Shown here: piece after piece, positions 3,621-52,221 of the stretch | How positions within the stretch are numbered: the stretch's first letter is position 1 | Layout of the letters: every line of letters begins with the position of its first letter | Assembly: GCA_038065455.1 (NCBI GenBank) | Contig: JBBTQX010000002.1 | Location: 32,001-96,000, forward strand | Source: Patescibacteria group bacterium | Lineage (GTDB): Bacteria > Patescibacteriota > Minisyncoccia > UBA6257 > GWB1-50-10 | Direction: 5' to 3' | DNA: 64,000 bases | Translations under genes and position numbers: made by a program | The notes under the pieces: generated by a model | What the model was told of the DNA's origin: nothing | The model's database searches: none | What the model saw: only the letters and a program-made list of their open reading frames with translations

Positions 3621-3908
3621 ATGTATCCCGTTAGAGACATTTCTATGTATTACAATTACGTTTTAAGAAGCAAAAAAGATGGGAAATGGTATACTGGCTA
3701 CACGAATGATCTACGGAAGCGCTTTAGCCAGCACAATAGCGATAAATTCCCTCAATGGACCAAAAATCGGGGTCCTTTTGAAATCATATACTATGAAGCC
3801 TGCAAAGATCTGCAAGATGCAAGGTCGAGGGAATATTATCTAAAAACAGGAATGGGTAAACGTTATATCAAAAATAGGCTAAAGCGCTTCCTGTCTCTAA
3901 CGGGATGA
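3621..3908 (+). CDS. Stand-alone GIY-YIG endonuclease (UPF0213/YhbQ-like); alternative start at 3645
   Basis: YYNYVLRS...WYTGYTNDLRKRFSQHN...TKNRGPFEIIYYE...ARSREYYLKTGMGK; its TGA overlaps the next ATG (ATGA). Confidence 0.9.
   Translation: MYPVRDISMYYNYVLRSKKDGKWYTGYTNDLRKRFSQHNSDKFPQWTKNRGPFEIIYYEACKDLQDARSREYYLKTGMGKRYIKNRLKRFLSLTG
3625..3906 (+). mobile_element. Family A IR element, nuclease-carrying copy (A1)
   Basis: Perfect 15-bp IR ATCCCGTTAGAGACA (3625-3639) / TGTCTCTAACGGGAT (3892-3906) enclosing the GIY-YIG ORF; the same IR occurs at three other sites. Confidence 0.75.
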
Positions 3909-5149
3909 ACCTCAAAACCCGGCGAACTCTCTTTTACTTCTTCATTCTCATATTCGTCCTTGCGGGCGCTTATCTCCTCGCAACCGCCCAGGGGCTGGTC
4001 CTGGATTTCAAAAATCTGAAGATTACCGGCACTGGCGGGCTCTTTTTGAAGTACGTTCCGCCCGACGCGACTGTGGAATTGAACGGCAAAAAAACCGATG
4101 TTTCGCCCGGCCTCGTTTCGAGCGGAATTTTCATCTCTAAATTAATTCCCGACGAATACCGGGTAAAGATTTCAAAACCGGGCTTCTCTGCCTGGGAAAA
4201 GACACTCGCGGTTAAGAACGGCGCGGTGGCTTCGGCGAGCCAAATCAGGCTCTGGCCCGAAGTCTGGGATTTGAATGTCATTACGACGAGCTCCGTCCGG
4301 GATTTCCGGCTCACGGGTGCGGGTCTAGTACTCCAAGGAAAAAACGGAACTCTTCGGCTGGACGGATTTTCTTTGGGAAACAGGAGTGTCGCTTTGAGCG
4401 GGCCGGACTCGTCCCTCATCGTTACGACCGATGAAAAAGAAAATTTTGTAACCAATCTCGAAGATTTGTCACCCGCGCTCGATATCGTCCGGCTCTTTAA
4501 TTCGCTGAAACAAAGCCAGTTGAATCTTCCCGGCACGATCATTCCTAAAAATTACTTCCTTCATCCCTTTAACGCCAAAATTCTCATCACGACCGGAAAC
4601 GCGCTTTACTCGCTCGATATCAAAAGATTGAGACTTGAAAAACTGACCGATATGGCAGGAATTAAGAAGGCGGAATTAAGGGGAAACGAAATGTTTCTTT
4701 TCGATATGAAAGACAATATAACGACATTCAATCTTTTTCTCCAAACTGCCAGAATTTATGAATCGACCTCCACCGAAGCCATCGGAATAGGAGCGAGCCT
4801 GGCCGGCTTGCCGGCCCCCGACGGGAAAAAGATTTTTTTGCTTTCAAAAAACGACACGCTTTCTTTGAAAGTTTTGGAAAATTATTATGCCGACGGCGAA
4901 GTGAGAAAGGGCGATATGTGGCCCGTTTTTTCCGACCGGGGCAAAATAACGGATTTCAAATGGTTGAATGGCAATTCTAATTATGCGCTGGTACTTGCCG
5001 AAAAAAACTTGTTCATCGTTGAAACCGACCGGCGCACCCCGCAGAATATCCGACTCATATCCCAAGGAGTGGAAAAATTCGCGACGGAGGGAAACGATCT
5101 CTATATCCTCAAAACCGACGGCACGCTTCTGAGGGCGAGTTTGAAGTAG
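3905..5149 (+). CDS. Membrane-anchored PEGA-domain protein with a probable beta-propeller C-terminus
   Basis: N-terminal TM helix, then TGGLFLKYVPPDATVELNG...LIPDEYRVKISKPGFSAWEK (PEGA pattern). Confidence 0.7.
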   Translation: MNLKTRRTLFYFFILIFVLAGAYLLATAQGLVLDFKNLKITGTGGLFLKYVPPDATVELNGKKTDVSPGLVSSGIFISKLIPDEYRVKISKPGFSAWEKTLAVKNGAVASASQIRLWPEVWDLNVITTSSVRDFRLTGAGLVLQGKNGTLRLDGFSLGNRSVALSGPDSSLIVTTDEKENFVTNLEDLSPALDIVRLFNSLKQSQLNLPGTIIPKNYFLHPFNAKILITTGNALYSLDIKRLRLEKLTDMAGIKKAELRGNEMFLFDMKDNITTFNLFLQTARIYESTSTEAIGIGASLAGLPAPDGKKIFLLSKNDTLSLKVLENYYADGEVRKGDMWPVFSDRGKITDFKWLNGNSNYALVLAEKNLFIVETDRRTPQNIRLISQGVEKFATEGNDLYILKTDGTLLRASLK

Positions 5150-5159
5150 AAGACGAATT

Positions 5160-5528
5160 TTAAAAAATATCAGAGACTCTAGTCAGTGCAAGCCGATTCA
5201 TGACTTCATCGTCATAGTTATCCATATGGACACAGATGCAAAGTAAGACGATAACGGCGCCTTTTACTGCGAACCACATTCGGGGATACTGATTGGGTCT
5301 TAAATTATCATTAGGAACAACGAGTTCTACTTTCCATAAGGTCCAGATATCATTCTGCGTTACCCTGTGTAATTTTGCCGGGGCTATTATTTGCTTCGGA
5401 TTCTCCGGATTGAATTGAAATTCGCACAACCTCTTGAATGAATCTAAACCGTCTTTAAGATGACGAAATCGCCGCTCAAGGGCGGCGATTTCTTTTTCTA
5501 TGCCGTCATGATACAGAAATTCAATCAT
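5160..5528 (-). CDS. Putative toxin (RelE/ParE-like) paired with the Panacea antitoxin
   Basis: 122 aa; ATGA overlap with the upstream Panacea gene; LWKVELVV...YPRMWFAV...LLCICVH resembles the RelE-superfamily topology (inference). Confidence 0.55.
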   Translation of the reverse strand: MIEFLYHDGIEKEIAALERRFRHLKDGLDSFKRLCEFQFNPENPKQIIAPAKLHRVTQNDIWTLWKVELVVPNDNLRPNQYPRMWFAVKGAVIVLLCICVHMDNYDDEVMNRLALTRVSDIF

Positions 5529-6016
5529 AGGTCGCTGAAATCCGTACCGCGATAGAACGCGAGTTCATATGAAATATCCTCTCCCGGCTTCGTCCCAACA
5601 TATGGGGCCTCAGCATGGGAAAGTTCGCCAAGCTGTTTTCCATTCAATTGGCCGTATTTTATGGCAACGCGATCAAGCATTCTTCTTTCTTCGATATCTA
5701 ATATTAATTCATCCGGTTCCGCCAAAGAACTGTAAACCTCAATTGGATTATATCCATTTCCCAATTCGACGGCTTTGGCAAGAAGTATTTTTTTCTCGGA
5801 CATTTCCGATATAATTTTCTCAAAAGAGACTGGTACTGGCCCCATAGGAAGGGCTTTATATGTATCCCCAGTTATAGGTTTCTGATTCTTTTCGAAGAAA
5901 TCAAAATCAGCAAAATAAAGGAGTTTTGCTAGTTTTTTCTTCCCTTGGATTTCACCTCCTAATTTCTTACAGAGATATAGTATAACTTGCTGATATTTCT
6001 TCTTTTGGAGGGTCAT
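5525..6016 (-). CDS. Panacea (DUF4065/SocA-like) antitoxin
   Basis: KKLAKLLYFADF...PITGDTYKALPMGPVP...LGELSHAEAPY. Confidence 0.85.
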   Translation of the reverse strand: MTLQKKKYQQVILYLCKKLGGEIQGKKKLAKLLYFADFDFFEKNQKPITGDTYKALPMGPVPVSFEKIISEMSEKKILLAKAVELGNGYNPIEVYSSLAEPDELILDIEERRMLDRVAIKYGQLNGKQLGELSHAEAPYVGTKPGEDISYELAFYRGTDFSDL

Positions 6017-6133
6017 TTTACTTAACAGTATTATACCACAATAAAACTCAAAACAACAAGAAAATGGCTATCTGAATAGTAAAATGAAGACTTAACTTAA
6101 ATGTTTCAATGCTCCTTCTCAATGCAACAGTGG

Positions 6134-6160
6134 AAAAAAAATCCCCGAAGGGATTTTTTT
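6134..6160. terminator. Intrinsic terminator after rpsI (potentially bidirectional)
   Basis: AAAAAAAATCCC-CGAA-GGGATTTTTTT. Confidence 0.75.
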
Positions 6161-6611: not shown

Positions 6612-6612
6612 T

Positions 6613-6954: not shown

Positions 6955-6955
6955 A

Positions 6956-8056: not shown

Positions 8057-8074
8057 TTTTTTGTTTTATAAAAT

Positions 8075-8674
8075 TTAACGCGAATAGAATTGGCCGACCA
8101 CGTTTATATCGAAAGGTAGTTGCACTCCGGTAACGGGCGGTTTTGCCACGCACTCGCCTTTCAATTCCTCCGCTTTGAGCTTAAGCCACTCAGGCGGGGT
8201 GTATTGCTTCAACCGGAGTTGAATATCATCGAAAATCTTCGCCGAGCGGGATTCGGGCCGCACAGCAATAATGTCTTTAACCCTAACATAATAGGAAGGA
8301 ATTGTCACTTTTCGGCCATTCACGTGGATATGGCCGTGGGAGACGAGCTGGCGGGCGATTCTCGGAGACTTCGCGAATCCCAAAAGAAAAACCACGTGGT
8401 CGAGGCGGCTTTCGAGCTTGGTCATAATGCCGTCTTTGTCGGAATTCCGGAACATTCTCATCATCTGATGATTATTCAGCCCGTAAAGAATTTGGATTTT
8501 CTGTTTTTCCTGGAGCTGCTTTCCGAATTCGGAAACGGAGTGGCGCGCCTGGCCGTGCTGGCCCGGGCGGTAAGGATGGCGTACCATCGCGCACTTCGGC
8601 GAATTACAGCGGTCTCCCTTGAGGAAGAGTTTGATGCCCAGCGATCTTTCTTTTTTCTCTTTGATTCTTTTCAT
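8075..8674 (-). CDS. rpsD: 30S ribosomal protein S4
   Basis: PGQHG, LQEKQK, LESRLD, ARQLVSHGH; likely start MKRIKE at 8674, and the ORF-track extension lies inside element A2. Confidence 0.96.
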   Translation of the reverse strand: MKRIKEKKERSLGIKLFLKGDRCNSPKCAMVRHPYRPGQHGQARHSVSEFGKQLQEKQKIQILYGLNNHQMMRMFRNSDKDGIMTKLESRLDHVVFLLGFAKSPRIARQLVSHGHIHVNGRKVTIPSYYVRVKDIIAVRPESRSAKIFDDIQLRLKQYTPPEWLKLKAEELKGECVAKPPVTGVQLPFDINVVGQFYSR

Positions 8675-8798
8675 CCCGTTTAGAGACAGGATACGCTTAA
8701 GAAGCATATCCGTGAAGCATTAGCCGATTCGACTTTATTGGATTCTATTGATTGTTTGATAATCATGTTATTCATAAGTTTGATGTCTCTAACGGGAT
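8673..8798 (-). mobile_element. Family A IR element, short copy (A2) at the rpsD start codon
   Basis: ATCCCGTTTAGAGACA (8673-8688, one extra T) / TGTCTCTAACGGGAT (8784-8798); internal hairpin GGATACGCTT-AAG-AAGCATATCC. Confidence 0.8.
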
Positions 8799-8808
8799 TC
8801 ATATTTTT

Positions 8809-8953
8809 ACCAGGCAGTGAAAATGCGATTGCAAATCGTGATTGAATCGACGATTCTCGCTATTTCCAATGACCTTTTATTTATATTCATATGTTTTGAT
8901 ATTATGATGGTTTTCGATTTGAATTCAATCTAATCGCATTTCTACTGCCTGGT
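8809..8953. mobile_element. Family B IR element, short copy (B1) directly after the rpsK stop
   Basis: ACCAGGCAGTGAAAATGCGATT (8809-8830) / AATCGCATTTCTACTGCCTGGT (8932-8953). Confidence 0.8.
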
Positions 8954-9402
8954 TAAACCCTTCTGGTCTTGGCCGGACGCGGTCCGTTGTGCGGAATCGG
9001 CGTCACATCCTTGATGGACAGTATATTCAAGCCCTTGCCGGCGAAAGAACGGATGGCGGAATCGCGGCCGCTACCCACGCCGCGCACGAAAATCTCCACG
9101 GTATTCGGGCCGGTCTTTTCCAATTTCTGGGCAATGGCTTCGGCGACTTTGGAAGACGCGAAAGGAGTCGCCTTCTTGGGTCCGGAAAATCCCAAAGAGC
9201 CAGCGGACATCCATGTAATCACGGCACCCTTATCGTCGGTTACGGTAATAATGGTGTTATTATAGGTGGCTTGAATATAGATACGGCCGTTTTCCCAGTG
9301 CTGTTTGGATGTGGACGAAGATTGCTTAGCCGGCGCCTTTTCGGCCGTCCCCGCTTCCTTCACCGCTTCGTCTTTGGTTTTTATGACTTTTTTCTTTCCC
9401 AT
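8953..9402 (-). CDS. rpsK: 30S ribosomal protein S11
   Basis: ATYNNTIIT, SAGSLGFSGPKKATPF, GVGSGRDSAIR, DVTPIPHNG. Confidence 0.97.
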   Translation of the reverse strand: MGKKKVIKTKDEAVKEAGTAEKAPAKQSSSTSKQHWENGRIYIQATYNNTIITVTDDKGAVITWMSAGSLGFSGPKKATPFASSKVAEAIAQKLEKTGPNTVEIFVRGVGSGRDSAIRSFAGKGLNILSIKDVTPIPHNGPRPAKTRRV

Positions 9403-9415
9403 TTGCCGATTATAT

Positions 9416-9450
9416 ATGAATTTTCGAGTCTACAGACGATGAAAATTCAT
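9416..9450. repeat. Hairpin upstream of rpsK
   Basis: ATGAATTTTC (9416-9425) / GAAAATTCAT (9441-9450), with an inner GTC/GAC pairing. Confidence 0.6.
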
Positions 9451-9464
9451 CCATAGAATCGAGC

Positions 9465-9563
9465 ACCCCGCCATCATCCCCGACTTGGAGCAGGATATTT
9501 TCTTTCATTATGATTTTCGTTATTTTATTGTTTTTCATATTTTTAGTGTAATGATGGCGGGGT
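9465..9563. repeat. IR-bounded AT-rich insert between rpsM and rpsK
   Basis: Perfect 13-bp IR ACCCCGCCATCAT (9465-9477) / ATGATGGCGGGGT (9551-9563). Confidence 0.75.
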
Positions 9564-9573
9564 AAGTGTTCCC

Positions 9574-9957
9574 TTATTTCAAATCGACTTTCCGCTTGCC
9601 ACTACCGGCCGTCTTCCTGACGTTGCCGCGCACCGTCCGGGAATTCGTTTTCGTCCGCTGGCCGCGCACCGGAAGCTTTCGCAAATGACGCACGCCGCGA
9701 TAGGCTTTAATATCTTTCAAGCGAGCGATGTTCTGTTTTATCACTTGCCGCAACTCTCCCTCAATCTTGTAGTTCTTCTCTATCATTGATTGGATGCGGT
9801 TCACCTCGTCCGGCGCCAAATCCTTCGCTCGTTTTTGGAGGTCGATTTTCGCGCCGACCAAAACCTTGGCGGCCAAGGTCGGGCCAATGCCGTAGATGTA
9901 GCCCAAGGCCACGTAGATTTTTTTGTTATCGGGTATGTTTACTCCGGCGATTCTCAT
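9574..9957 (-). CDS. rpsM: 30S ribosomal protein S13
   Basis: MRIAGVNIP, IYGIG, YRGVRH, LPVRGQRTKTNSRT. Confidence 0.97.
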   Translation of the reverse strand: MRIAGVNIPDNKKIYVALGYIYGIGPTLAAKVLVGAKIDLQKRAKDLAPDEVNRIQSMIEKNYKIEGELRQVIKQNIARLKDIKAYRGVRHLRKLPVRGQRTKTNSRTVRGNVRKTAGSGKRKVDLK

Positions 9958-9959
9958 AA

Positions 9960-10076
9960 TTATCCTTGTCTTTGTTTATGCCTCGGGTTCTTGGCACATA
10001 TGACGTAAACCCGCCCTTTTCGACGGACGGTCTTGCAAACGCTGCAGATTTTTTTTACCGATGCTCTGACTTTCAT
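9960..10076 (-). CDS. rpmJ: 50S ribosomal protein L36 (too short for the ORF track)
   Basis: Manual translation [38 protein letters not shown]. Confidence 0.97.
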
Positions 10077-10198
10077 CCCGTTAGAGACAGGATACGCTTA
10101 AAAAGCGCATCCGTGATATGTCGCTTGGTTTGATTATTCCGACCTGTTGGTTATTCATATTGATACATTATTCAAAATTTGTTTGTCTCTAACGGGAT
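10075..10198 (-). mobile_element. Family A IR element, short copy (A3) at the rpmJ start codon
   Basis: ATCCCGTTAGAGACA (10075-10089) / TGTCTCTAACGGGAT (10184-10198); internal hairpin with arms GGATACGCTT and AAGCGCATCC. Confidence 0.8.
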
Positions 10199-10208
10199 TC
10201 ATAAAACT

Positions 10209-10436
10209 TTACAATCTTCGCACGATTCGTCCCCGTTTGTCCAGGATGTTCGCCATCTCCACCATAACCCTGTCTCCGGGGATAACCCGGATGCGGTTGA
10301 TTTTAAGCTTGCCGGCGGGATGCGCTAAAATGTCTTTTTCTTCCCCGTTTTCAAGTTTGACCTTCACGCGGAAAAGCAAACCCGGCAGTGCCTCCACCGC
10401 TATTCCCTCAATCCTGACTAAAGGCGTATTTTCCAT
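10209..10436 (-). CDS. infA: Translation initiation factor IF-1
   Basis: IEGIAVEALPGLLFRV, ILAHPAGK, IRVIPGDRV, RGRIV; upstream of rpmJ. Confidence 0.93.
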   Translation of the reverse strand: MENTPLVRIEGIAVEALPGLLFRVKVKLENGEEKDILAHPAGKLKINRIRVIPGDRVMVEMANILDKRGRIVRRL

Positions 10437-39092: not shown

Positions 39093-40219
39093 TATAAAAT
39101 TATACCACCGCCTAGCATACGTCGACCGCGCAGACCAGCCAAAAATCCCGCTTCGTAAAAGACGGCCGACTGGCCGGGAGCGACGAATTTGACCGGTTTT
39201 GAAAAAATCAATTTATATTTCCCGCCCTCTTCTTTTATAAGCGTTGCCGGAATGAGCGGCTGGCGATACCGAACTCTGGCAAAAACTGATAACTTATGAC
39301 CTATAACTTGAAACTTACTAACGAGTTTTGGGTTTATAAAATGCGTGTCTGCTAACTCTATCTCTTTTTTGAAAAGCGCCGGATTGTCGCTTCCCAGCGC
39401 GACTACAAGTGTGTTCGTATTGATGTTTTTATCCGCAACGTAAAGCGGTTTTTGGAATTTGGTATTTGGGATTTGGATTTTGGCGCCCAAATGTCTTTGC
39501 CCAATCGTATAGAACTGGGCGCCCATGTGCTCCCCCATCTTCCGGCCTTCCGTATCGACGATCGGCCCTTTTTTCGGCTTGATATAATCTTTCAAAAATT
39601 CATCGAGTTCCACCTCGCCCAAAAAGCATATCCCTTGAGAATCTTTCTTTTCCGCCGTCGGCAATCCCGCTTCTTTCGCTATTCTCCGCACTTCGGGCTT
39701 CACATAATCCCCGATCGGAAAAAGGCAGTGTTTCAATTGTTCCTGTGTGAGCGTCCACAGGAAATAAGATTGGTCTTTGTTTTTATCTCTAGCCTCAAGG
39801 AGAGAAAATGCATTTTCTCTCTCCGCGAGCCGTACATAATGACCGGTCGCGATATAATCCGCGCCCATCTCGAGCGCCTTCTTGAAAAATAAGCCGAATT
39901 TAATTTCCTTATTGCACATCACATCCGGATTGGGTGTGAGCCCGCTCCGATAGCCCACTACCATATACTCCACCACTTCCTTCTTATATTCCTTTTCAAA
40001 ATCAAAAACGTAGAATGGAACGCCTAAATGTGCGGCCGCCCGCCGAGCATCTTCCGCATCACGTTCGGCACAGCCGTCCACGTTGAATGAGCGGATAAAA
40101 ACGCCAGTGATATTATATCCCTGTTTCTGTAGCAAATAAGTGGCTACGGAAGAATCCACTCCGCCCGATAAGCCAACAAAGACCCTTCGCTTCTGCTCAG
40201 GGCAGACCTTTTTACTCAT
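39092..40219 (-). CDS. mnmA: tRNA-specific 2-thiouridylase
   Basis: GLSGGVDSS, TPNPDVMCNKEIKF, ATGHY, KDQSYFL, DSQGICF, TIGQR, PGQSAV. Confidence 0.96.
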   Translation of the reverse strand: MSKKVCPEQKRRVFVGLSGGVDSSVATYLLQKQGYNITGVFIRSFNVDGCAERDAEDARRAAAHLGVPFYVFDFEKEYKKEVVEYMVVGYRSGLTPNPDVMCNKEIKFGLFFKKALEMGADYIATGHYVRLAERENAFSLLEARDKNKDQSYFLWTLTQEQLKHCLFPIGDYVKPEVRRIAKEAGLPTAEKKDSQGICFLGEVELDEFLKDYIKPKKGPIVDTEGRKMGEHMGAQFYTIGQRHLGAKIQIPNTKFQKPLYVADKNINTNTLVVALGSDNPALFKKEIELADTHFINPKLVSKFQVIGHKLSVFARVRYRQPLIPATLIKEEGGKYKLIFSKPVKFVAPGQSAVFYEAGFLAGLRGRRMLGGGIIL

Positions 40220-40791
40220 ACTTTCTCCACGCGCTCCACGTACTCGCCTGTTGTCGTATTCACTCTCAAAATATCGCCTTCATTGATGAAGAGAGGAGCA
40301 TCCACCTTCGCGCCCGTTTCGAGCGTCACCACTTTCGTACCGCCTTGGGCCGTATTGCCCTTCACGGCCGGCGGAGCTTCGGTCACTTTCAAATCCATTT
40401 TTATCGGCAATTCCACATTGATAACCTTCTCGCCGAATTTATAGGCCGTTACTTCCAGATTGGTTTTGAGAAATTGGGCGGCCTTGCCGATAACGTCGAC
40501 GCTCAAGGTAAAGCGGTTTTTGGGATTACCTTTTTCGTTGAACCAAAATTCGCCGCGGCTCTGATAAATGAATATCACCGTCGTCGTGTCTATCTCGGCT
40601 TCCTCATATTCCTCGTTTTGGTGGGCGGAATAGTCCACCACCTTGCCGTTCACTAGATTCTCGATTTTGAGCTGGACGACTGGCTTCCTCTGTTGCATCC
40701 GGACGAAGGCGTATTCTATCACCTTCCACGGCTCGCCATCCTTGATGAAAACCGTGCCTATCTTCAACTCGTTATAGGATAATCTGGACAT
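40216..40791 (-). CDS. efp: Elongation factor P
   Basis: VELP, PAVKGNT, TLETG, PLFINEGD, GEYVER. Confidence 0.93.
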   Translation of the reverse strand: MSRLSYNELKIGTVFIKDGEPWKVIEYAFVRMQQRKPVVQLKIENLVNGKVVDYSAHQNEEYEEAEIDTTTVIFIYQSRGEFWFNEKGNPKNRFTLSVDVIGKAAQFLKTNLEVTAYKFGEKVINVELPIKMDLKVTEAPPAVKGNTAQGGTKVVTLETGAKVDAPLFINEGDILRVNTTTGEYVERVEKV

Positions 40792-40792
40792 A

Positions 40793-40929
40793 CCAGGTAG
40801 TGAAAATGCGATTTAAAATCGCGATAATTTGATTAATTTTTATAATAGATGACCTTTTATGTATCTTTTTACAATGCTGGGCAATAAATACGACTTAAAC
40901 TTGTTTCCAGTCGCATTTCTACTACCTGG
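40793..40929. mobile_element. Family B IR element, short copy (B2) at the efp start
   Basis: CCAGGTAGTGAAAATGCGA / TCGCATTTCTACTACCTGG flanked by a CATA direct repeat (40789-40792, 40930-40933). Confidence 0.8.
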
Positions 40930-41013
40930 CATAATTGCTGACTATTCTATTCAAAATCCGGAAGATTTGCAAATTCCTTTAGAAATCAGCCAATAACATA
41001 TTTAAGTGAAGCG

Positions 41014-41157
41014 CGGCATGATAAAAAAGTGGGTAAAAGCTCCGCTTTTTATCGACATCACTCGGACAAAACAAAAACATTGTTTTTGCTTTGCTCCTCG
41101 CTCGTCGATATAAGACTTGGCCTAGCGGCCCGGAGCGCACACTTTTTTGGCGTGCCG
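41014..41157. repeat. Long nested hairpin sharing 28 bp with the insert in tgt
   Basis: CGGCATG/CGTGCCG, AAAAAAGTG/CACTTTTTT, GCTCCG/CGGAGC, TATCGAC/GTCGATA, CAAAAACA/TGTTTTTG; 41111-41138 identical to 54140-54167. Confidence 0.7.
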
Positions 41158-41171
41158 AACCTAGCTTAGCG

Positions 41172-43022
41172 CTACTCTATCTTCGTGAGTGCGCTTTTCA
41201 AAGCATCTTTGAGACTCTCCACGCTCATTTCCTCTTTCGGATCTTTAGTTCTTTTTTCCTCATGAGGCTTGGATAATTCCGAAAGAGACACTCCGGGCCT
41301 TCCCGTTTCTTCCATAAAAGGTTTTTCTTCAAAGGCGGCCGAGTGTTGCGGCCGAGCAATTTCTGGCTTCACGAACGCAGGTTTGGGCTTGGGTTTGAAG
41401 ACCTCGAAAGCTTTCTTTATCGGCTGGAAGTTTTCTCTCTTCGGAGCGGCTGGCGCCTGCGTCTTCTGCTGTTCGAATTCGATGCCTAAAACGGCTAAAT
41501 CGGAGTATTGCTGATTCTGCACCTGGGGCGAAGGAGCGAATTCTCGGTCGGACGGAATCGGTTTCAATTCCCCCGCTTTTATCTTCGCGAGGCAATCCTG
41601 GCAGTAGACCGGCCGGCCCGGCTGAGGTTCAAAAGGAACGGTCGTTGTTTTCCCGCACGATGAGCAGACCACCTGGTATTTGCCAGAAGCGCTGATTGGC
41701 CCACTCGCGGTCATACCCGGTCCACCCATGCCACTCCATTCGTTGATTTCTTTCTCCACCATCCAGGACGGCCGGGCATAGCGCTTTTTGGAATTTTCTA
41801 TGATGGTATTCACGAGCTCGGAAGATGAGTTCACTTTGAAACCCGGCAGGGTTTTGGCCGAAAATGGCCGGCTCGTCACGCCGTCCACCATCAGTTTCAG
41901 GTAGATGGTATAGTTCGGAAGATTGACGAAATCCGCCGGGACGAATTCCGGATCGAACTCACTTTCCAAAAATTCGGCATCCGCCGCGCCCACCCGGAAA
42001 CAAATCATCGTGCCGACGTTGCCGAAAACCGCGTCGCGCACCTTGGTGGAAACATCGGTCACCAATTGGCCGATATATTGATGGGCCAGGATAAGGTCCA
42101 ATCGATATTTTCTGGATTCGGAAAGAATACTGGCGAAGGAATCGGTCGCGAAGTTCTGGAATTCGTCCACATAAAGGTAGAAATCCACGCGCTCGTCTTC
42201 GGGCACACGCACGCGCTCCATCGAAGCAAGCTGGATTTTTGTGATGAGCATCGCGCCCAAAAGCGCCGAGTTGTCTTCTCCGATCCGGCCCTTCGATACA
42301 TTCACGATGAATATCTTTCCGGAATTCATTATGTCAAAGATATCGATCGTACTCTTGGATTGGCCGACGATATTCCGCACGACGGAAGTCGAAAGGAATT
42401 GGCCGACTTTGTTTTGAATCGGGGCGATGGCTTCGTTGCGGAACTGGTCTTTCCATTCCTCGTATTCGTTCAACCAAAAAGCCTTCACGACCGGGTCTTT
42501 GATGTTCCCAACGATTTTCTGGCGGTACTCTTTGTCCACAAGAAGCCGGGTGATGCCCAAAAGAGTGGAGCCGGGCGTGTCCAAGAGCGCGAGAATCGCG
42601 TTATTCAAAATATATTCCATACGCGCCGACCAAACGCCGGACCAAATCTTCGTGAAGATGCTCATCAGGCCCGAAGCGGCCAAATGCTTGTATCTCGGGT
42701 CGGGCAGTTCCAAAACATTGAAGCCGATATGGGACTCCGTGTCGGCCGGGTTGAAATAAATAACGTCGTCCATCCGCTCCTTCGGAATCTTTTCCAATAT
42801 TCCTTCCGCCAATTCGCCGTGCGGGTCGATGACGCACAAACCCTCGCCGTTCGCGATATCCTGCGTAATGAGATTGTTCAGGAGGACGGACTTGCCCGTG
42901 CCGGTCTTGCCCACCACATACATATGCTGGCGGCGGTCCTTCCGCTTGATGCCAAAAAGCCGGTCGGCGTTCCGGAAATTCGTTCTCGCGAAATATGCGA
43001 CGTCTTTATCTATTTCAGCCAT
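41172..43022 (-). CDS. VirD4/TraG/HerA-like P-loop ATPase with a C-terminal CxxC-x17-CxxC zinc ribbon
   Basis: HMYVVGKTGTGKS, IDPHGEL, LYVDEFQNF, SESRKY, AHQY, CSSCG...PFEP...PVYCQDC. Confidence 0.85.
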   Translation of the reverse strand: MAEIDKDVAYFARTNFRNADRLFGIKRKDRRQHMYVVGKTGTGKSVLLNNLITQDIANGEGLCVIDPHGELAEGILEKIPKERMDDVIYFNPADTESHIGFNVLELPDPRYKHLAASGLMSIFTKIWSGVWSARMEYILNNAILALLDTPGSTLLGITRLLVDKEYRQKIVGNIKDPVVKAFWLNEYEEWKDQFRNEAIAPIQNKVGQFLSTSVVRNIVGQSKSTIDIFDIMNSGKIFIVNVSKGRIGEDNSALLGAMLITKIQLASMERVRVPEDERVDFYLYVDEFQNFATDSFASILSESRKYRLDLILAHQYIGQLVTDVSTKVRDAVFGNVGTMICFRVGAADAEFLESEFDPEFVPADFVNLPNYTIYLKLMVDGVTSRPFSAKTLPGFKVNSSSELVNTIIENSKKRYARPSWMVEKEINEWSGMGGPGMTASGPISASGKYQVVCSSCGKTTTVPFEPQPGRPVYCQDCLAKIKAGELKPIPSDREFAPSPQVQNQQYSDLAVLGIEFEQQKTQAPAAPKRENFQPIKKAFEVFKPKPKPAFVKPEIARPQHSAAFEEKPFMEETGRPGVSLSELSKPHEEKRTKDPKEEMSVESLKDALKSALTKIE

Positions 43023-44185: not shown

Positions 44186-45640
44186 CTATATCAAAGGCTC
44201 CGGCGTGTCGTCCTTCTTGGCGGCCGCTCCGCCTCCGGAATTTCCCGTAATGGCCGCCTTTTCCTGGGCACTCCGGAAGATGCCTGCCTCCTCCTCGGCG
44301 AGAAGTTTCTTGGCCGCGTCGGCCAGAATGGTGTATTTCGCCCGCGAAGCTTTAATAATTTTTTCTTTGAATGAGCTGTGGGGCGGCGGAAGAATCTTGA
44401 GCGTTTCGGCGGAGAAGGGGTCATAGGTCTCGCCATCAATCGTCATTTTTATGTAAAATTCTTGCATCCCGAGATTGATCATATCCTTGGATTTGAATAT
44501 CGGGGTCATTTCGGATTCCAATCGCGCGGCATCTTCGCCGCCCACTCGAAAAACGATAATACTCCCCGTATTACCCAAAACCGCCGCCTGAATCTGCGGA
44601 ATCAATTGTTGCATATATTGATGCGCCACCGTAAGACAAAGACCGTACTTCCGTGCTTCGGAAAGTAGATTCTCGAAAGTTTCCGTCACGAGGCTATGGA
44701 ACTCATCTATATAAAGATAGAAATCGTGCCGCTTGGATTCGGCCAGGGACGCCCGAGCCATGCCGGCCTGTTTTATTTTTGTAACGAACATCGAGCCGAA
44801 GAAACTGGAATTCTCCTCGCCCAGCTTTCCTTTTGAGAGATTGATGAGAATTATTTTCTTCTGATTCATCAGTTCTTCCAAGTTTATTTTATTCTCCTTC
44901 TGGCCGAAGATGTTCCGGAGGAGCGGATTAGAAAGAAACTGGCCGAGCTTGTTCACCAAAGGAATAATGGCATCGGTATCGAACTTCTCCGACCAGTCGG
45001 CGAACTCAATCGCCCAAAAGCGCTTGACCATATCGTCTTCGATGTACTCCACCACTTTCTGGCGGTAATTGCGGTCGTTCAAAAGCGAGATCATTCCACG
45101 CATGGTGGCGTAGGGATAGTCCAGCAGCGCAAGACAGGTGAAGCGGAAAACGTGCTCCAGCCGTGGCGTCCAATTCGCGCCGAATTGTTTTTCCATCACC
45201 TCAATAAGGCCTTGGGTGAGCTGATGTTTGAAAGATGGATCGATATTGGCGAGTGGATTGAATGAAACCGGGTATTCCGCGTCCGATGGGTCGATGATGC
45301 AGACGTCGTCGACGCGGTTTTCCGGAATGGCATCAAGAATTGCGTCAATCACGTCGCCGTGCGGGTCCATCAGGCACAATCCATAACCGTAGGCGATATC
45401 CTGACGGATTAGAAGCTCCAAAAGTTTGGACTTACCCACGCCGCTCTTGCCGACTATGTAGATATGGCGCCGGCGATCCACCCGCTTAATGCCGAAAACG
45501 AAGCGCTTTTCCTCGAGGGCCGCGATGTAGTTCGTACGCCCGATATAGGAAATTTCACTCGCGTCGGCCCTGCCGTAGACCGGGAGTTCCGGCGGCGGCG
45601 GGGCATACTTGATTATTTGAAGCTTTCCGGCTTTTGGCAT
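44186..45640 (-). CDS. Second VirD4/TraG/HerA-like P-loop ATPase
   Basis: HIYIVGKSGVGKS, MDPHGD, LYIDEFH, SEARKY, AHQY. Confidence 0.85.
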   Translation of the reverse strand: MPKAGKLQIIKYAPPPPELPVYGRADASEISYIGRTNYIAALEEKRFVFGIKRVDRRRHIYIVGKSGVGKSKLLELLIRQDIAYGYGLCLMDPHGDVIDAILDAIPENRVDDVCIIDPSDAEYPVSFNPLANIDPSFKHQLTQGLIEVMEKQFGANWTPRLEHVFRFTCLALLDYPYATMRGMISLLNDRNYRQKVVEYIEDDMVKRFWAIEFADWSEKFDTDAIIPLVNKLGQFLSNPLLRNIFGQKENKINLEELMNQKKIILINLSKGKLGEENSSFFGSMFVTKIKQAGMARASLAESKRHDFYLYIDEFHSLVTETFENLLSEARKYGLCLTVAHQYMQQLIPQIQAAVLGNTGSIIVFRVGGEDAARLESEMTPIFKSKDMINLGMQEFYIKMTIDGETYDPFSAETLKILPPPHSSFKEKIIKASRAKYTILADAAKKLLAEEEAGIFRSAQEKAAITGNSGGGAAAKKDDTPEPLI

Positions 45641-45642
45641 TT

Positions 45643-45956
45643 ACCAGGCAGTAGAAATTCGACTATTTGTGGTTTTTATCATAAAAGTATTCTTTGAGCA
45701 TGCGCTTTAGCAATCTGGCACCTTGGCTCGTCTTCAGATATTGCTCTCTTCTTGTTGCGTCCCTTGAATTCAAGTATGCCTCATAGTGTATCAATATCCA
45801 AGGTGCTTTTTTCTGGTTGAATAGCTCTTTTTGCGATTATGTTCTTTGAATCTTCTCTTTAAATCATTGGTATAGCCTATATACAACGAATTGTCTTTTA
45901 GACTCCGGAGAATGTAGATATAGAACATAATCGCGGTCGAATTTTCACTGCCTGGT
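45643..45956 (-). mobile_element. Family B IR element, nuclease-carrying copy (B3)
   Basis: ACCAGGCAGTAGAAATTCGAC (45643-45663) / GTCGAATTTTCACTGCCTGGT (45936-45956) enclosing a GIY-YIG gene. Confidence 0.78.
45663..45928 (-). pseudogene. GIY-YIG endonuclease split by a -1 frameshift at A_AAA_AAG (pseudogene, recoded gene or assembly error)
   Basis: Frame 0: MFYIYILRSLKDNSLYIGYTNDLKRRFKEHNRKKSYSTRKK; the -1 frame continues APWILIHYEAYLNSRDATRREQYLKTSQGARLLKRMLKEYFYDKNHK*; not in the ORF track. Confidence 0.85.
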
Positions 45957-45961
45957 GAAGT

Positions 45962-47896: not shown

Positions 47897-47932
47897 TGAT
47901 TTCTTTTTATTTTACCTTATTAGAGAAATAAC

Positions 47933-47966
47933 AAAAACCCCGCCAATCCATAGACTGGCGGGGTTT
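47933..47966 (-). terminator. Intrinsic terminator
   Basis: Stem CCCGCCA...TGGCGGG next to an A-run on the + strand (U-tract on the minus strand). Confidence 0.65.
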
Positions 47967-47978
47967 CCGAACATTGGC

Positions 47979-48998: not shown

Positions 48999-49041
48999 AT
49001 TTTAATGATGATAACGATAGCATAATGGTTTTACGGTGTCA

Positions 49042-49111
49042 ACCAGGTAGTGAAAATTCGGCCGCTTCGCACAGTCTGCCTTTGGCAGAAGCCGAATTTC
49101 TACTACCTGGT
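49042..49111. mobile_element. Family B IR element, minimal copy (B4) after secF
   Basis: ACCAGGTAGTGAAAATTCGGC / GCCGAATTTCTACTACCTGGT; TCAA direct repeat at both ends; inner hairpin TCTGCC-TTT-GGCAGA. Confidence 0.8.
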
Positions 49112-49126
49112 CAATCCCCCATCAGA

Positions 49127-50017
49127 CTATTTTTTCTGCCAAAGATACAACAGCGGGCTGGCCACGAATATGGAGGAATAGGTCCCGAAAACCGTTCCCA
49201 CGAGAATAGTGAGAATGAAGAAGAATATGGAAGCCGGGCCGAAAATAAGCAGGGTCACGAGCACAATAACGAGTGTGAGCGTGGTGTTTATGGAACGGGC
49301 CATGGTTTCGTTCACGCTGAAATTAATGATTTCGCCCAAGTCGAATCTTTTGCCTCGATTCAAAGTCAGGTTCTCCCGAATGCGGTCGAAGACCACGATG
49401 GTGTCATGGACGGAAAAACCCATCACGACAAGCAGTGCCACGATGAAATTCGTGTCTATTTCAATTCCTTTCCAGTGTCCCAAAATGGCCAAAAGGCCGG
49501 CCGGGATACTCACGTCGTGCAGGAGTGTCAAAAGAGTTACGATACCATACTTCCAAGATTTGACCGGTTCCGAAACCTTTCGGAAAGCCCAAGCAATGAA
49601 AAGCGATATACCGAACATTACGAGCGCCACGGCCCAAATGGATTTATTTTTGAGTTCCGAACCGATAGCCGGACCGATCGAGGAGTAACTTTTTTCGGAT
49701 ACCTCGCCGAATTCTTTTGCGAGCTCTTCCTTATAGTTCCGCCTCTGCTCTTCGCTCAAGCTCGGCAGGCGAACAAGGAAAGTTCCGTCATCGGAACTCT
49801 TCACGCTCACTGTACTTCCCTCTCCCGCCGTTTTTTGCAAAGCCTCCTTGATCGCCGTTTCGGTCACATCGCTCTTTCCAAAACTCATCTGCCATTCCGT
49901 GCCGCCTTTAAGGTCAATGCCGGGCCGGAGGCCGAAGATTATAATGAGCGCCCAAGCCGCGACAACCATAAGTCCAGAGAATCCTAAAAAGTAATTTTTA
50001 TTCGCTATCAGATTCAT
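49127..50017 (-). CDS. secF: Protein translocase subunit SecF
   Basis: GIDLKGG, IGPAIGSEL, LLHDV, GFSVHDTIVVFDRIRE, RSINT, YSSIFVASP. Confidence 0.95.
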   Translation of the reverse strand: MNLIANKNYFLGFSGLMVVAAWALIIIFGLRPGIDLKGGTEWQMSFGKSDVTETAIKEALQKTAGEGSTVSVKSSDDGTFLVRLPSLSEEQRRNYKEELAKEFGEVSEKSYSSIGPAIGSELKNKSIWAVALVMFGISLFIAWAFRKVSEPVKSWKYGIVTLLTLLHDVSIPAGLLAILGHWKGIEIDTNFIVALLVVMGFSVHDTIVVFDRIRENLTLNRGKRFDLGEIINFSVNETMARSINTTLTLVIVLVTLLIFGPASIFFFILTILVGTVFGTYSSIFVASPLLYLWQKK

Positions 50018-50140
50018 CCCGTTAGAGATAGGATACGCTTAACAAGCGTATCCGTGATATTTTTGTTTGTTCGACTGATTTTGATTGTTTTGATTTTATG
50101 GAAGTCATATTATTTATACTTTGAAAATCTCTAACGGGAT
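50016..50140 (-). mobile_element. Family A IR element, short copy (A4) between secD and secF
   Basis: ATCCCGTTAGAGAT (50016-50029) / ATCTCTAACGGGAT (50127-50140); ATGAAT direct repeat on the coding strand; supplies the secD stop codon. Confidence 0.82.
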
Positions 50141-51420
50141 TCATTATCTTCAACAGATTTATTATCTTGACCAATAAATATCCGAAGCATTGTGCGCGTG
50201 ATGGTAATAGCCGAGAACATACTGATCAAAACTCCGATTAAAAGTGTAAGAGCAAAACCGCGCACGAAACTCGAAGTGAAATAATAAAGGACGGTCGCTG
50301 TAATAATGGTCGAGATATTGGAATCCCGGATGGAGGTCCAAGCCCGTCGGAAACCCTCTTCAATGGCGGAATAGTGGGATAATCCCTTTTTAAGTTCTTC
50401 CTTCGTCCTTTCGAAAACGAGAATATTCGCGTCCACCGCCATACCAATAGACAGAATGAAGCCAGCGATACCCGAAAGAGTCATCGTTATGGGAACGATT
50501 TTGAAGATTGCGAGCGTCAAAGCCACGTACATTAAAAGCGCGAAAGCGGCGAATACTCCCAAACCGCGGTAATAAATAATCATAAAAAGGAGGATCGCGA
50601 GCGTTCCGACAATGCCCGCGAAAACGGCCTTATCGAAGGCTTCCTTTCCGAAATCGGGGCTTACTGTCCGCTGATTCACGAGTGTAATCGGCGCGGGCAA
50701 AGCTCCCGCGTTGAATCTTTCCGCGAGCTGGCGAGCCGTATCGACGGTAAAATTTCCGCTGATTTGAGCCTTGCCGCCCGTGATTTTCTGCTGGACCGTC
50801 GGCATCTCAATCAATTGATTATCCAAAAATATAGCGAGCGGCTTTCCTACATTCTTTCCGGTCAGATCGGCGAAAATTTCCGCTCCTGCGCTCGAAAAAG
50901 TGAGGTCTACTTGGGGCTGGCGCGTCACGGAATCAAAACTTATCTGCGCGCTCACAACATAACGGCCATTCAATTCCGTTGGAATAAATTGAACAGTGGA
51001 ACTCGCCTCAAGCGAACCCGTTGCGGGAGCGATTACTTCGCGAAAATCCAAAAAAGGCGTAGCACCAATCTCTTTAATAGCCTCATCGATATCCTTTATT
51101 CCGGCCAACTCCACCGCCAGCCTGGTCGATTCTCCTGCTTTCTCGACGAAAACTCGCGGTTCGCTCACTCCGAATAAATTGACGCGCTTTTCGATGACAT
51201 CCCTGAGACCACTGACCACCGAATCCCGATCGGCGAAACCGACTTTCGAGAGATCCACTTCATACGTCAAAAGACTGCCGCCGGCCAAATCCAGGCCGAA
51301 GTTCCAGGGCCGGAAGGAGCTTATTTTCTGCCACAAGGGTTCGTAGGAAAAAACAGCGGCGAAGGCGGCTACCGCCACGAGAAGAATCAATACTGCTACC
51401 AGTCGCTTCTTGGAAATCAT
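50131..51420 (-). CDS. secD: Protein translocase subunit SecD
   Basis: GLDLAGG, RVNLFGVSEP, AGALPAP, IGMAVDANILVFER, IRDSN, VRGFA. Confidence 0.95.
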   Translation of the reverse strand: MISKKRLVAVLILLVAVAAFAAVFSYEPLWQKISSFRPWNFGLDLAGGSLLTYEVDLSKVGFADRDSVVSGLRDVIEKRVNLFGVSEPRVFVEKAGESTRLAVELAGIKDIDEAIKEIGATPFLDFREVIAPATGSLEASSTVQFIPTELNGRYVVSAQISFDSVTRQPQVDLTFSSAGAEIFADLTGKNVGKPLAIFLDNQLIEMPTVQQKITGGKAQISGNFTVDTARQLAERFNAGALPAPITLVNQRTVSPDFGKEAFDKAVFAGIVGTLAILLFMIIYYRGLGVFAAFALLMYVALTLAIFKIVPITMTLSGIAGFILSIGMAVDANILVFERTKEELKKGLSHYSAIEEGFRRAWTSIRDSNISTIITATVLYYFTSSFVRGFALTLLIGVLISMFSAITITRTMLRIFIGQDNKSVEDNESR

Positions 51421-51498
51421 TTCCCCAAAGTATATAGCAAGCTCGTTTTCAAATCAAATAAAAAACCGAGTTATTGAAACTCGGTTTCGATAAATTAA

Positions 51499-52002
51499 TC
51501 ACCCTCCAAAATTCCTCTTTCTTTTATAAGAGGGGAACTTATGGAAAGACGCTATGTGCGGTATATTTCCCATTTGTTCCTCCAATATATCCAGCATATC
51601 GAAGGAATCGAGATGTTGAAAGAAAGAAAATGTTTTTTCCGCTTCTCCAACGGCAAGTGGTAATCCTTCATCCATCACCATTAATAGTTCGGTTTTGTTT
51701 TTTTTCGAAGCCAGTTCCCTATCGATTTTTTCTTCCACTTCGGAAAAAAAATTATCCTGATCGGGAATATCGTCATCGGAAACATACCTGTGAGGATCGT
51801 GGCAAAAAACGAATTCATCGTCGTCAAAGTCAGGAATATTGAATTCCGAATTTGACGGAACAAGATTGCGAAGAGCCAGGCATTTCCGACCGGAGTTTTC
51901 GTTCGGCGGCCGCTTCAAGTTGATTTTTTCTTTTGCCAGCGAGAGCGTTTCTTTCGTCGGGAAGAAAACTTCTTTCGATACTACCAACATGGATTTTTCC
52001 AT
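51499..52002 (-). CDS. Hypothetical acidic protein
   Basis: AGGAGG 7 nt upstream of the ATG at 52002; terminator-like hairpin AAACCGAGTT...AACTCGGTTT near 51463-51488. Confidence 0.55.
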   Translation of the reverse strand: MEKSMLVVSKEVFFPTKETLSLAKEKINLKRPPNENSGRKCLALRNLVPSNSEFNIPDFDDDEFVFCHDPHRYVSDDDIPDQDNFFSEVEEKIDRELASKKNKTELLMVMDEGLPLAVGEAEKTFSFFQHLDSFDMLDILEEQMGNIPHIASFHKFPSYKRKRNFGG

Positions 52003-52150
52003 GACATTTCCTCCTATTATTAGGGTTGGTTGATAAGGGTGGATTATTGATTTTTTGTGGTACTCATTCAATTATACCCCCGAATTTTCAATAATATCAA
52101 TTGGGTGTACTGGCTTTTATTTGAAAATATTGACGAATTTCACCGGGTTC

Positions 52151-52221
52151 ACCAGGTAGTAGAAATGCGATCAGTTCGCTTTGCGAACTAAACTTGAATC
52201 ATCGCATTTTCACTACCTGGT
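52151..52221. mobile_element. Family B IR element, minimal copy (B5) overlapping the M23 gene stop
   Basis: ACCAGGTAGTAGAAATGCGAT / ATCGCATTTTCACTACCTGGT; inner hairpin AGTTCGC-TTT-GCGAACT. Confidence 0.8.

Follow-up and report, generated by a model that had tools for sequence, protein, structure and literature searches.

The window analysed here (64,000 nucleotides; positions 32001-96000 of contig C2 in genome G000, from a Patescibacteria group bacterium) carries two families of short elements with terminal inverted repeats (IRs), families A and B, in which a full-length copy holds a single gene for a small GIY-YIG nuclease and the remaining copies do not. Both families are almost certainly transposable DNA. 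IR-bounded units have been inserted recently and repeatedly with 4-bp duplications, and the decisive evidence for their mobility is the set of empty sites found in relatives. We think it probable that they are small elements akin to insertion sequences (IS), with terminal IRs and a 4-bp (sometimes 3-bp) target duplication, that the sole gene of the full-length copy, encoding a GIY-YIG nuclease near UPF0213/Ssn, supplies the mobilising enzyme, and that the 60-145-bp copies are nuclease-less miniature inverted-repeat transposable elements (MITEs) or hairpins. Family A insertions fall precisely on ATGAA start codons and without exception share the orientation of the host gene, and in 41 related genomes nuclease lineage and IR type go together.

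Copies and their ends

The genome (654,420 bp in 10 contigs, rated 100% complete) was compared with 41 related genomes, including four of the same genus. The closest of these, G004, is syntenic with the window, with flanks 81-95% identical. Family A ends are TCCCG...CGGGA, copies starting with TCCCGTTAGAGAC and finishing with GTCTCTAACGGGA; family B ends are CCAGG...CCTGG, copies starting with CCAGGYAGT and finishing with ACTRCCTGG. The family A 13-mer has 7 exact matches in the window where 1.56 are expected, and the family B 15-mer has 10 where 0.02 are expected; none of 100 shuffles reached 7 or 10, respectively. Nine copies had been named in a preliminary description of this DNA, and all nine are present with coordinates right to within 1 nt; its autonomous/non-autonomous layout is real, nuclease-bearing and nuclease-less copies having the same ends. 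That description also called the two IRs unrelated. Their sequences do differ, but they share a common build of C-rich termini and a 4-bp flanking duplication. The copies, with the adjoining open reading frames (ORFs), are as follows.

3626..3905, plus strand: family A, full-length; IR TCCCGTTAGAGAC at both ends; GIY-YIG gene ORF 3621/3645-3908; flanks TGTA (3622-3625) and TGAA (3906-3909); host gene 3905-5149, its ATG made of the element's terminal A plus TG; absent at the orthologous G004 site
8674..8797, minus strand: family A MITE; one extra T in the left IR; flanks TTCA/TTCA; host ORF (...-8674, minus strand) begins at the rebuilt ATG; absent in G004
8810..8952, plus strand: family B MITE; 5' end GTGAAAAT, 3' end ATTTCTAC; adjoins the stop codon of ORF 8953-9402 (minus strand)
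10076..10197, minus strand: family A MITE; perfect 4-bp duplication TTCA (10072-10075 and 10198-10201); host is a 38-aa ORF on the minus strand with its rebuilt ATG at 10076
40793..40929, plus strand: family B MITE; perfect duplication CATA (40789-40792 and 40930-40933), which includes the start codon of ORF 40216-40791 (minus strand)
45644..45955, minus strand: family B, full-length; GIY-YIG gene split by a frameshift (45791-45928 plus 45663-45794, minus strand); host ORF 44186-45640 (minus strand) begins 3 nt from the element 3' end; absent in G004
49043..49110, plus strand: family B, short hairpin-like copy of 68 bp; duplication TCAA/TCAA
50017..50139, minus strand: family A MITE; duplication TTCA/TTCA; host ORF 49127-50017 (minus strand) begins at the rebuilt ATG; upstream ORF 50131-51420 (minus strand) stops at a TAG within the IR; absent in G004
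52152..52220, minus strand: family B, short copy of 69 bp; ORF 52213-53082 (minus strand) stops at a TAG within the IR; absent in G004

A script searched the whole genome for IR pairs of both families. It returned 24 candidate pairs for family A, 2-3 of them spurious, leaving about 21 copies in 654 kb, and 23 pairs of 61-312 bp for family B. Family A copies are mostly 111-141 bp long, with six of 32-74 bp (a few of these hairpin-like) and two of 280 bp. The idea that just one copy of each family is tightly filled by a nuclease gene holds within the window and fails genome-wide: both 280-bp family A copies carry the gene, the second at C8:28385-28668, and the last 50 bp of contig C3 match the start of the family B nuclease element exactly but with a different flank, hence a second family B nuclease copy cut by the contig end. 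Between the family A nuclease copies identity is 99.65% over 284 bp and breaks off at the IR ends. Similarity between long and short copies extends past the termini, since the 3' end of family A MITEs shares ~24 nt with the 3' end of the nuclease gene, beyond the 13-15-nt IR, and the family B MITE at C8:18824 has CGACCGCGATT in common with the family B nuclease element. Copy number varies among relatives, with 24 family B ends here versus 0-2 in the four same-genus genomes, and from 0 to 46 family A ends per genome across the 41.

Empty sites and target duplications

Empty orthologous sites, which the preliminary description had proposed looking for in relatives, were found by three routes. 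G004 lacks eight of the window's nine copies at its syntenic sites. For the 10076 insertion the G004 sequence is GACT-TTCA-TAAAAC, against GACT-TTCA-[element]-TTCA-TAAAAC in the window, and at the 40793 site it is CTGGA-CATA-ATTGC, with a single CATA. At the 8810 site G004 retains ~14 nt resembling the family B right end, left as a remnant or as a footprint. Copy 49043..49110 alone among the nine is shared with G004, where it occupies the same site in degenerate form.

The second route uses independent contigs of X7, X9 and X11, three runs from three metagenome studies, aligned to the window at a likeness of 90; they are 93-98% identical to the window and so derive from relatives, not necessarily from the same population. 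Two joints backed by long-sided contigs were used, and low-depth bins and the many short-sided joints between repeat copies were left out. One joint, 10071->10198, skips 126 bp with 5 ambiguous letters (sides of 25, 122 and 158 letters), and the other, 8674->8939, skips 264 bp (sides of 30, 255 and 30 letters). In the reciprocal test, all four testable host genes that bear a GIY-YIG element in genomes G001 or G002 are element-free here, and these element-free orthologues start with ATGAA, ATGAA, ATGAG and ATGGG.

Flanking 4-mers agree with this picture to differing degrees. Family A flanks are identical at 4/4 positions in 15 of 24 candidate pairs, with one more (8674) after boundary correction, and non-standard words matched on both sides are CTCA, TCAA, TAAA (twice) and TCCA. 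Mismatched pairings of family A flanks are, however, identical in 102 of 552 cases, and flank identity is by itself weak evidence for this family because TTCA (TGAA on the element strand) is so dominant as a target. For family B, 10 of 23 flanks are perfect and 7 match at 3/4, versus 34 of 506 mismatched pairings; the perfect words are CATA, TCTA, TATA, TCAA, TTGA, TTAA and TTTA. Several imperfect family B flanks would fit a 3-bp duplication of TTA or TAA. One family A MITE, C4:38107-38217, has TTCA on one side and the reverse complement TGAA on the other, as expected from an inversion or from recombination between two copies that swaps flanks.

Family A at start codons

Oriented with its host gene, family A reads A-TGAA-[TCCCG...CGGGA]-TGAA, and the host ATG is rebuilt from the last A of the element and the TG of the duplicated TGAA. 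In 18 of 22 copies an ORF of at least 60 aa begins exactly at the terminal A+TG; a 19th copy precedes the 38-aa ORF, which by eye we take to be ribosomal protein L36. Other hosts resemble, again by eye, what are presumably RpoC, SSB and tRNA synthetases. Family A MITEs have the same orientation relative to the host gene in 15/15 cases. Such fixed orientation on an asymmetric target word points either to insertion that is strand-specific or to selection favouring read-through to the host gene.

The coding sequence itself runs into the repeats. In family A it is often open from the original host ATG through the IR (M-N-P-V-R-D...) and ends L-S-L-T-G-stop in the other IR, with an ATGA overlap with the host gene, and gene callers give two forms of the nuclease, of 86-88 aa and 94-95 aa. 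Among relatives, 21 of 33 IR-boxed nuclease genes, including nearly all the A-like ones, have a same-strand ORF start no more than 8 nt from the right IR. Family A MITEs have a conserved hairpin, ACGGATGCGCTT-loop-AAGCGCATCC, adjoining the 3' IR. A -35/-10 pair read by eye in these MITEs is unsupported: a promoter and terminator scan of 8600-10300 gave 3 promoter-like sites versus 2.0 expected, with none in the 10076-10197 copy. A tRNA-derived origin of the family A IR was also considered and dropped by eye, and translational bypass at the duplicated ATGAA was weighed as a further conceivable reading.

Anatomy of family B

One end of family B is always GTGAAAAT and the other GTAGAAAT, in 23/23 copies, giving a GA/AG asymmetry; the same swap occurs in B-like IRs of other genera (loci L021 and L025). 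The consequence in a single DNA strand is that the paired ends make two stems, of 10 bp and 9 bp, with a 2x2 internal loop between them. Every copy tested, of either family, folds so that its termini pair (z -4.3 to -8.4). Family B copies occupy gene junctions in either orientation, plus in 11 cases and minus in 12, and 14 of their 46 ends lie within 6 nt of the start or stop of a long ORF. A CRISPR-repeat reading of the GTAGAAAT word was dropped by eye, there being neither arrays nor spacers.

The family B nuclease gene of the window is in two parts, a 45-aa N-terminal frame at 45791-45928 (PF01541, E 4.5e-11) and a 43-aa C-terminal frame at 45663-45794, which overlap beside a run of six A at 45807-45812. 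The frameshift is either a real mutation or a homopolymer error.

The nuclease

The protein encoded at 3621-3908 matches PF01541 with E 5.5e-16 (59.1 bits, cut-off 22.6). A stand-alone GIY-YIG gene of ~90 aa, as first proposed for each family, is thus intact in family A and frameshift-split in family B. Element nucleases are 87-95 aa long and consist of one domain, with no separate DNA-binding domain. In a set of IR-associated and Ssn-type sequences, residues Y5, Y16, G18, R26 and H30 are kept in 39/39 and E51, R62 and E63 in 38/39, and the same active-site residues are invariant in 48 close homologues; the catalytic role of each is presumed from I-TevI. The structural model of the family A protein (pLDDT 92.8; elements E-E-H-E-H-H) has the beta-beta-alpha-beta-alpha arrangement of the GIY-YIG fold and is predicted to be a bare domain with a long C-terminal helix. 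Foldseek matched it to the UPF0213 protein BH0048 (1zg2, E 4.5e-5), to Slx1 chains (TMq ~0.6) and to I-TevI (1ln0), and its best sequence match in the PDB is also UPF0213.

At least 1992 close homologues are present in the protein collection searched, the named ones coming from metagenome-assembled genomes (MAGs) of Candidatus Terrybacteria, Giovannonibacteria and Ryanbacteria, which makes the host probably a CPR bacterium of Parcubacteria type. A search of NCBIfam gave only sub-threshold matches (group I intron endonuclease, 20 bits vs a cut-off of 56), and Rfam at gathering thresholds found no match and no intron over the whole window. A group I intron reading was considered and dropped by eye. 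Other PF01541 loci of this genome are C7:26543 (IR-less and UPF0213-like), C8:92151 (by a tRNA gene) and C9:46218, a 400-aa frame that we take to be UvrC.

Two arrangements of GIY-YIG genes differ from those of families A and B. IR-less genes lie directly upstream of a tRNA gene at C8:92050-92560 and at locus L028 (contig C25 of genome G024), and at both ~11-16 nt of the 5' part of the tRNA are duplicated across the GIY-YIG gene, which suggests that a separate clade of this protein family inserts in a different way, linked to tRNA genes. At locus L029 (contig C54 of G021) a GIY-YIG element whose IR is ACCCGCCCGC interrupts a host gene (MKIFITGGTGF...) ~34 nt from its start. Those 34 nt recur behind the element, so that the nuclease ORF runs on from the first 11 host codons and the host gene begins anew downstream.

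Nuclease and IR type in related genomes

The family A protein matched up to 13 genes per genome in the relatives. We collected 67 small GIY-YIG loci and scored 71 genes by the highest-scoring inverted repeat lying no more than ~110 bp from the gene ends, with a score of at least 13 as the cut-off. In the 41 genomes 33/71 genes reach it, versus none of 400 random 260-bp stretches drawn from this genome (maximum score 12), so enrichment of stand-alone GIY-YIG genes inside IR pairs is general among these relatives, a point that the preliminary description had put up for testing. At least 12 IR types occur, mostly with C-rich termini; examples are listed here.

TCCCGTTAGAG, TCCCGTACG, TCCCGATAGTG, CCCTCCCAAC
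CCCAGTACAAT, CCCGCCTAAC, TCCCTCAC, CCCCCCACCAC
GCCCxCACACCAATT; ACCCCGCxC; B-like CCCAGTAGTGAAAAC

A tree was built from 67 proteins, dropping the truncated L003, L006 and L046 and the window's family B gene. Thirty-seven rows have IR labels, 7 of them set by eye, and for three of these 7 (L010, L023 and L024) the label refers to an adjacent hairpin or MITE instead of a flanking pair. Most IR-bearing genes belong to a single clade (40 rows, SH-aLRT 90), which includes an A-like sub-clade (20 rows, SH-aLRT 94). IR presence changes 5 times on the tree against a shuffled mean of 22.3 (minimum 16), and IR class 13 times against 33.4 (minimum 27); nuclease phylogeny thus tracks IR type, which the preliminary description had likewise proposed to test, although these shuffle figures, like the Fisher figures for the genome counts below, are overstated because related genomes are not independent and kin share labels.

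An A-type nuclease is found in 10/14 genomes rich in family A IRs (at least 10 ends) versus 2/27 poor ones. The corresponding figures are 5/14 and 4/27 for rve and 8/14 and 7/27 for Y1_Tnp, neither of which shows a comparable association. Genomes G001, G002, G005 and G026 are A-rich and have an A-type nuclease, with no match to rve or Y1_Tnp. Nuclease-bearing units precede different host genes in nearly every genome, and several nuclease genes are decaying through frameshifts and stops.

Other recombinases in the genome

The window has no match to the rve, DDE_Tnp_1, Y1_Tnp, TnpB, tyrosine recombinase or serine recombinase profiles, in line with the earlier remark that no DDE, HUH, serine or tyrosine recombinase was recognisable there. 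DDE_Tnp_1 and TnpB have no match anywhere in the genome. An IS with an rve transposase of ~365 aa, presumably IS481-like, is present in two 100% identical copies of 1114 bp (C8:60505-61618 and C8:81221-82334), and a partial rve gene lies at the end of contig C7. The ends of this IS (TGCATAAGGCCAC.../...GTGGCCTCATACA) are unrelated to A or B. Two Y1_Tnp (RAYT-like) genes of 235-236 aa, at C3:12622-13329 (minus strand) and C10:7392-8102 (plus strand), each have their own short palindrome (e.g., TTACGAGGTTAAACCTCGTAAG), unrelated to A or B and not multi-copy. The genome also holds one tyrosine recombinase and two to three serine recombinases, all outside the window. A conventional transposase with the same ends elsewhere in the genome would speak against the preliminary description; profile and IR searches of the genome found none with family A or B ends, and no pair of family A or B IRs spaced like an IS of 1-2 kb was seen.

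Additional features

A third, minor IR family is represented in the window by one element.

9465..9563, no strand assigned: IRs 9465-9477 and 9551-9563, ACCCCGCCATCAT at both ends, ~100 bp

It lies in a 171-bp stretch (9403-9573) that is missing in G004 and in contigs of runs X7, X9 and X11. Additional ends are found at C5:15966 and, with 1 mismatch, at C4:11, and the termini resemble IRs that box GIY-YIG genes in relatives (L060 and L065; ACCCCGCC...).

At window positions 5146-6149 contigs of runs X7 and X9 skip 1004 bp and carry 23 other letters instead. The skipped part spans ORFs 5160-5528 and 5525-6016 (minus strand) and so is a gene-content difference between close relatives. The word TAAGACTTGGCCTAGCGGCCCGGAGCGCACAC... 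(37-47 bp; window 41040-41180) has ~8 copies in this genome and some 25 in G002, and 4 copies exist of an 81-bp repeat adjoining it; G004 lacks this part of the window at the corresponding place.

Comparison with known systems

The Ssn family is described in the main text of Chenal et al. (2025, Nat Commun; PMC11893778) as 94-aa single-domain GIY-YIG nucleases (cd10448) that bind single-stranded DNA (ssDNA) and cut no other form, next to the NTS/SRM hairpin repeats that flank their own genes. These repeats are self-contained hairpins of 20-50 nt with copies in the hundreds, and the authors likened NTS-ssnA-NTS to an IS and to RAYT/REP, with mobility speculated upon only (PMC11893778, main text). 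The words 'duplication', 'start codon' and 'Patescibacteria' do not occur in that main text, though its supplements may list homologues from Patescibacteria or further types of repeat. The general nuclease-repeat association was already published in 2025 (PMC11893778). What families A and B add to it are duplications, empty sites, MITE derivatives, a split-IR architecture missed by the SRM motif, and start-codon targeting.

The two systems are alike in having a ~90-aa single-domain GIY-YIG gene flanked on both sides by an inverted multi-copy repeat, in their conserved active-site residues, and in that the C-terminus can enter the downstream repeat (as in locus L174). They differ in that family A and B ends are half-sites pairing only with each other across 30-280 bp, while the repeats of the main text of PMC11893778 are hairpins in themselves, and that text has no report of target duplications or empty sites, nor of MITE-like derivatives or start-codon targeting. 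A scan of public genomes for NTS gave 120 loci, two of which have an NTS-flanked Ssn-type gene between convergent NTS copies, L173 in an Anaerolineales MAG and L174 in a Gammaproteobacteria MAG. Searching the first 80 NTS loci with the element proteins (tblastn) gave no match; L173 and L174 are among the later loci. These two proteins are 30-43% identical to the element set (E 1e-14 to 1e-9), about equally for all sub-clades including the IR-less ones. Homology to Ssn is clear from these alignments, and as to specific membership the element proteins may belong either to cd10448 or to UPF0213 (cd10456). The SRM motif has 1 match in the whole genome (2-6 in shuffles) and none in the 24 family A or 23 family B pairs.

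Pairs of a DDE IS with its MITEs are well known (IS630/Tc1-mariner, IS5/PIF-Harbinger), and Correia elements are orphan MITEs. Families A and B resemble such pairs in their terminal IRs, in a short A/T-rich duplication, in having full-length coding copies beside many short ones, and in presence or absence between relatives. They differ in that the sole ORF of the element is a ~90-aa GIY-YIG gene, with no DDE, DEDD, HUH, Ser or Tyr domain, in that the coding sequence runs through both IRs, and in the fixed orientation of family A on the asymmetric TGAA. IRs with target duplication and presence/absence variation, the classical marks of a transposon, are thus found here, and a recognised transposase class is not. 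With RAYT/REPIN and IS200/IS605 the shared traits are a small enzyme with hairpin-forming repeats, strand asymmetry (23/23 in family B) and, in family A, fixed orientation on a short target word; the differences are the lack of a HUH protein in the elements, the target duplications, and the other palindromes at the Y1 genes.

UPF0213 (1zg2, 1ywl) and the nuclease domain of Slx1 are the best sequence and fold matches. The UPF0213-like genes here (C7:26543, and the clade L049-L064) differ in having no flanking IR. Cutting of branched and four-way DNA by Slx1 would fit recognition of a stem base or a cruciform; Slx1 itself depends on Slx4 and on a RING domain. Homing endonucleases of the GIY-YIG type, intron-encoded or free-standing (I-TevI, Seg), and Penelope-like retroelements are similar in that a nuclease serves a selfish element and damage to host genes is minimised. 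They differ from the present elements, which have no separate DNA-binding domain, intron, reverse transcriptase or single allelic site, and which occupy many unrelated sites with IRs and duplications. The literature searches brought up Chenal et al. as the one directly relevant paper. None of the papers searched contains the term 'GIY-YIG transposase', and none of those listed treats a bacterial element in terms of GIY-YIG, insertion sequence and target site duplication together. To our knowledge a GIY-YIG-only element is not among the enzyme chemistries by which bacterial transposons are classified.

Mechanism and alternative explanations

If the nuclease mobilises these elements, it would recognise the stem formed by the paired IRs of one strand, in ssDNA or in a cruciform, a mode suggested because it fits both Ssn biochemistry and the Slx1-like fold. 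It would cut at the base of the stem with a 4-nt offset, much as the published Ssn relatives cut just upstream of hairpin repeats. Cutting of the target with the same 4-nt stagger would give the duplication. Joining may fall to host ligase or repair; this is proposed because GIY-YIG enzymes hydrolyse DNA and have no known strand transfer. We know of no GIY-YIG enzyme that joins DNA.

Several points weigh against this reading of the nuclease. The joining half of the reaction has no explanation in GIY-YIG chemistry, and the case for nuclease-driven movement is built on sequence and genomic evidence; of the preliminary proposal that the small proteins recognise their own IRs and spread the elements, the mobility is borne out and the role of the nuclease is still conjectural. 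Flank identity says little for family A, as noted above, and 13/23 family B copies have no perfect 4-bp repeat. The assembly's one complete family B nuclease gene carries a frameshift, yet it is family B that has expanded here. Of the GIY-YIG proteins in the tree, 30/67 have no IR, and the relatedness of the genomes inflates the tree figures. Four of the 14 A-rich genomes (G003, G014, G025 and G028) have no A-type nuclease. Finally, the rve IS and two Y1_Tnp genes are present in the genome, and although their ends differ from A and B, action in trans is conceivable.

Some of these points would suit ordinary MITEs moved in trans by a conventional or unrecognised transposase, elsewhere in the genome or since lost, with the GIY-YIG gene as a passenger or selfish hitch-hiker. 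MITEs with no known transposase are familiar, Correia elements among them, and such a history would accommodate the two copies of the rve IS and the partial rve gene, the four A-rich genomes lacking an A-type nuclease and a family B that expanded despite its broken gene. We nevertheless judge it unlikely. The rve IS has ends unrelated to either family, rve is matched in 5/14 A-rich genomes, four A-rich genomes have neither rve nor Y1_Tnp, and nothing like a 1-2-kb IS bounded by either IR was seen; nor would one expect a passenger to occupy no fewer than 12 IR types from end to end, or its tree to follow IR type. A low probability also attaches to a domesticated Ssn-like host nuclease that cuts ssDNA at repeats, for instance to restrict incoming or recombining DNA, while the repeats multiply otherwise. 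Such a function is shown for Neisseria SsnA in the main text of PMC11893778, and the identity of 30-43% to the NTS-flanked L173 and L174 is in its favour. A domesticated gene is expected at a fixed locus, whereas the host gene that follows these units differs in nearly all genomes, members of one genus differ in having or lacking them, they include two near-identical copies and several decaying ones, and the published SRM motif matches none of the 24 family A and 23 family B pairs.

Movement as REPIN-like elements by the two RAYT-like Y1 (HUH) proteins of the genome is very improbable. The proteins exist, at 235-236 aa, and the elements do fold as long ssDNA hairpins with strand asymmetry in 23/23 family B copies, but the Y1 genes are flanked by their own palindromes, which are neither A nor B nor multi-copy, and Y1_Tnp is absent from 6/14 A-rich genomes. 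Single-strand transposition by HUH enzymes (IS200/IS605) makes no target duplication, whereas duplications are present here and confirmed by empty sites. It is hardly tenable to see in these repeats regulatory or structural sequences fixed in place (promoter modules, processing modules, structured RNAs) instead of mobile DNA: their position always at gene junctions, the fixed orientation of family A MITEs to the host gene and the conserved sub-terminal hairpin are what such sequences would show, but this explanation is already contradicted by the presence/absence data, with empty sites holding a single 4-mer in relatives and copy number differing greatly between same-genus genomes, and there is no Rfam match and no promoter predicted in the 10076-10197 copy. 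The repeats may have a secondary regulatory use.

Returning to the nuclease as mobilising enzyme, a bolder version can be put forward tentatively, at somewhat less than even odds in our estimation. The ~90-residue GIY-YIG nuclease would itself be the transposase, of a new class beside DDE, DEDD, HUH, Ser, Tyr and Cas1, acting in a restriction-like cut-and-ligate cycle, with family A as a 'start-codon hitch-hiker'. In such a cycle 4-nt staggered cuts would be made at both element ends and in the target, excision would be precise, and the overhang would be carried to the next site. A carried-over 4-nt overhang would explain the precise empty sites, the dominance of TGAA in family A and the use of one duplication word per sub-family. 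Family A would borrow the initiation signals of the host gene for its own ORF and return a rebuilt ATG, by which it could sit before genes that look essential by eye in a 0.65-Mb genome.

Significance

For annotation, N- and C-termini encoded in the IRs, together with the mini-ORFs upstream, will lead gene callers astray. Should each nuclease prove specific for its own IR, the dozen or more IR types would amount to a panel of small sequence- or structure-specific nucleases. On the question of Ssn mobility, families A and B bring the genetic evidence that was missing, namely duplications, empty sites, near-identical dispersed copies, nuclease-less derivatives and co-diversification of nuclease and ends, and with a 280-bp element and an 87-residue protein that question is now directly testable. 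Start-codon targeting, for its part, bears on how selfish DNA persists in a genome with almost no intergenic space.

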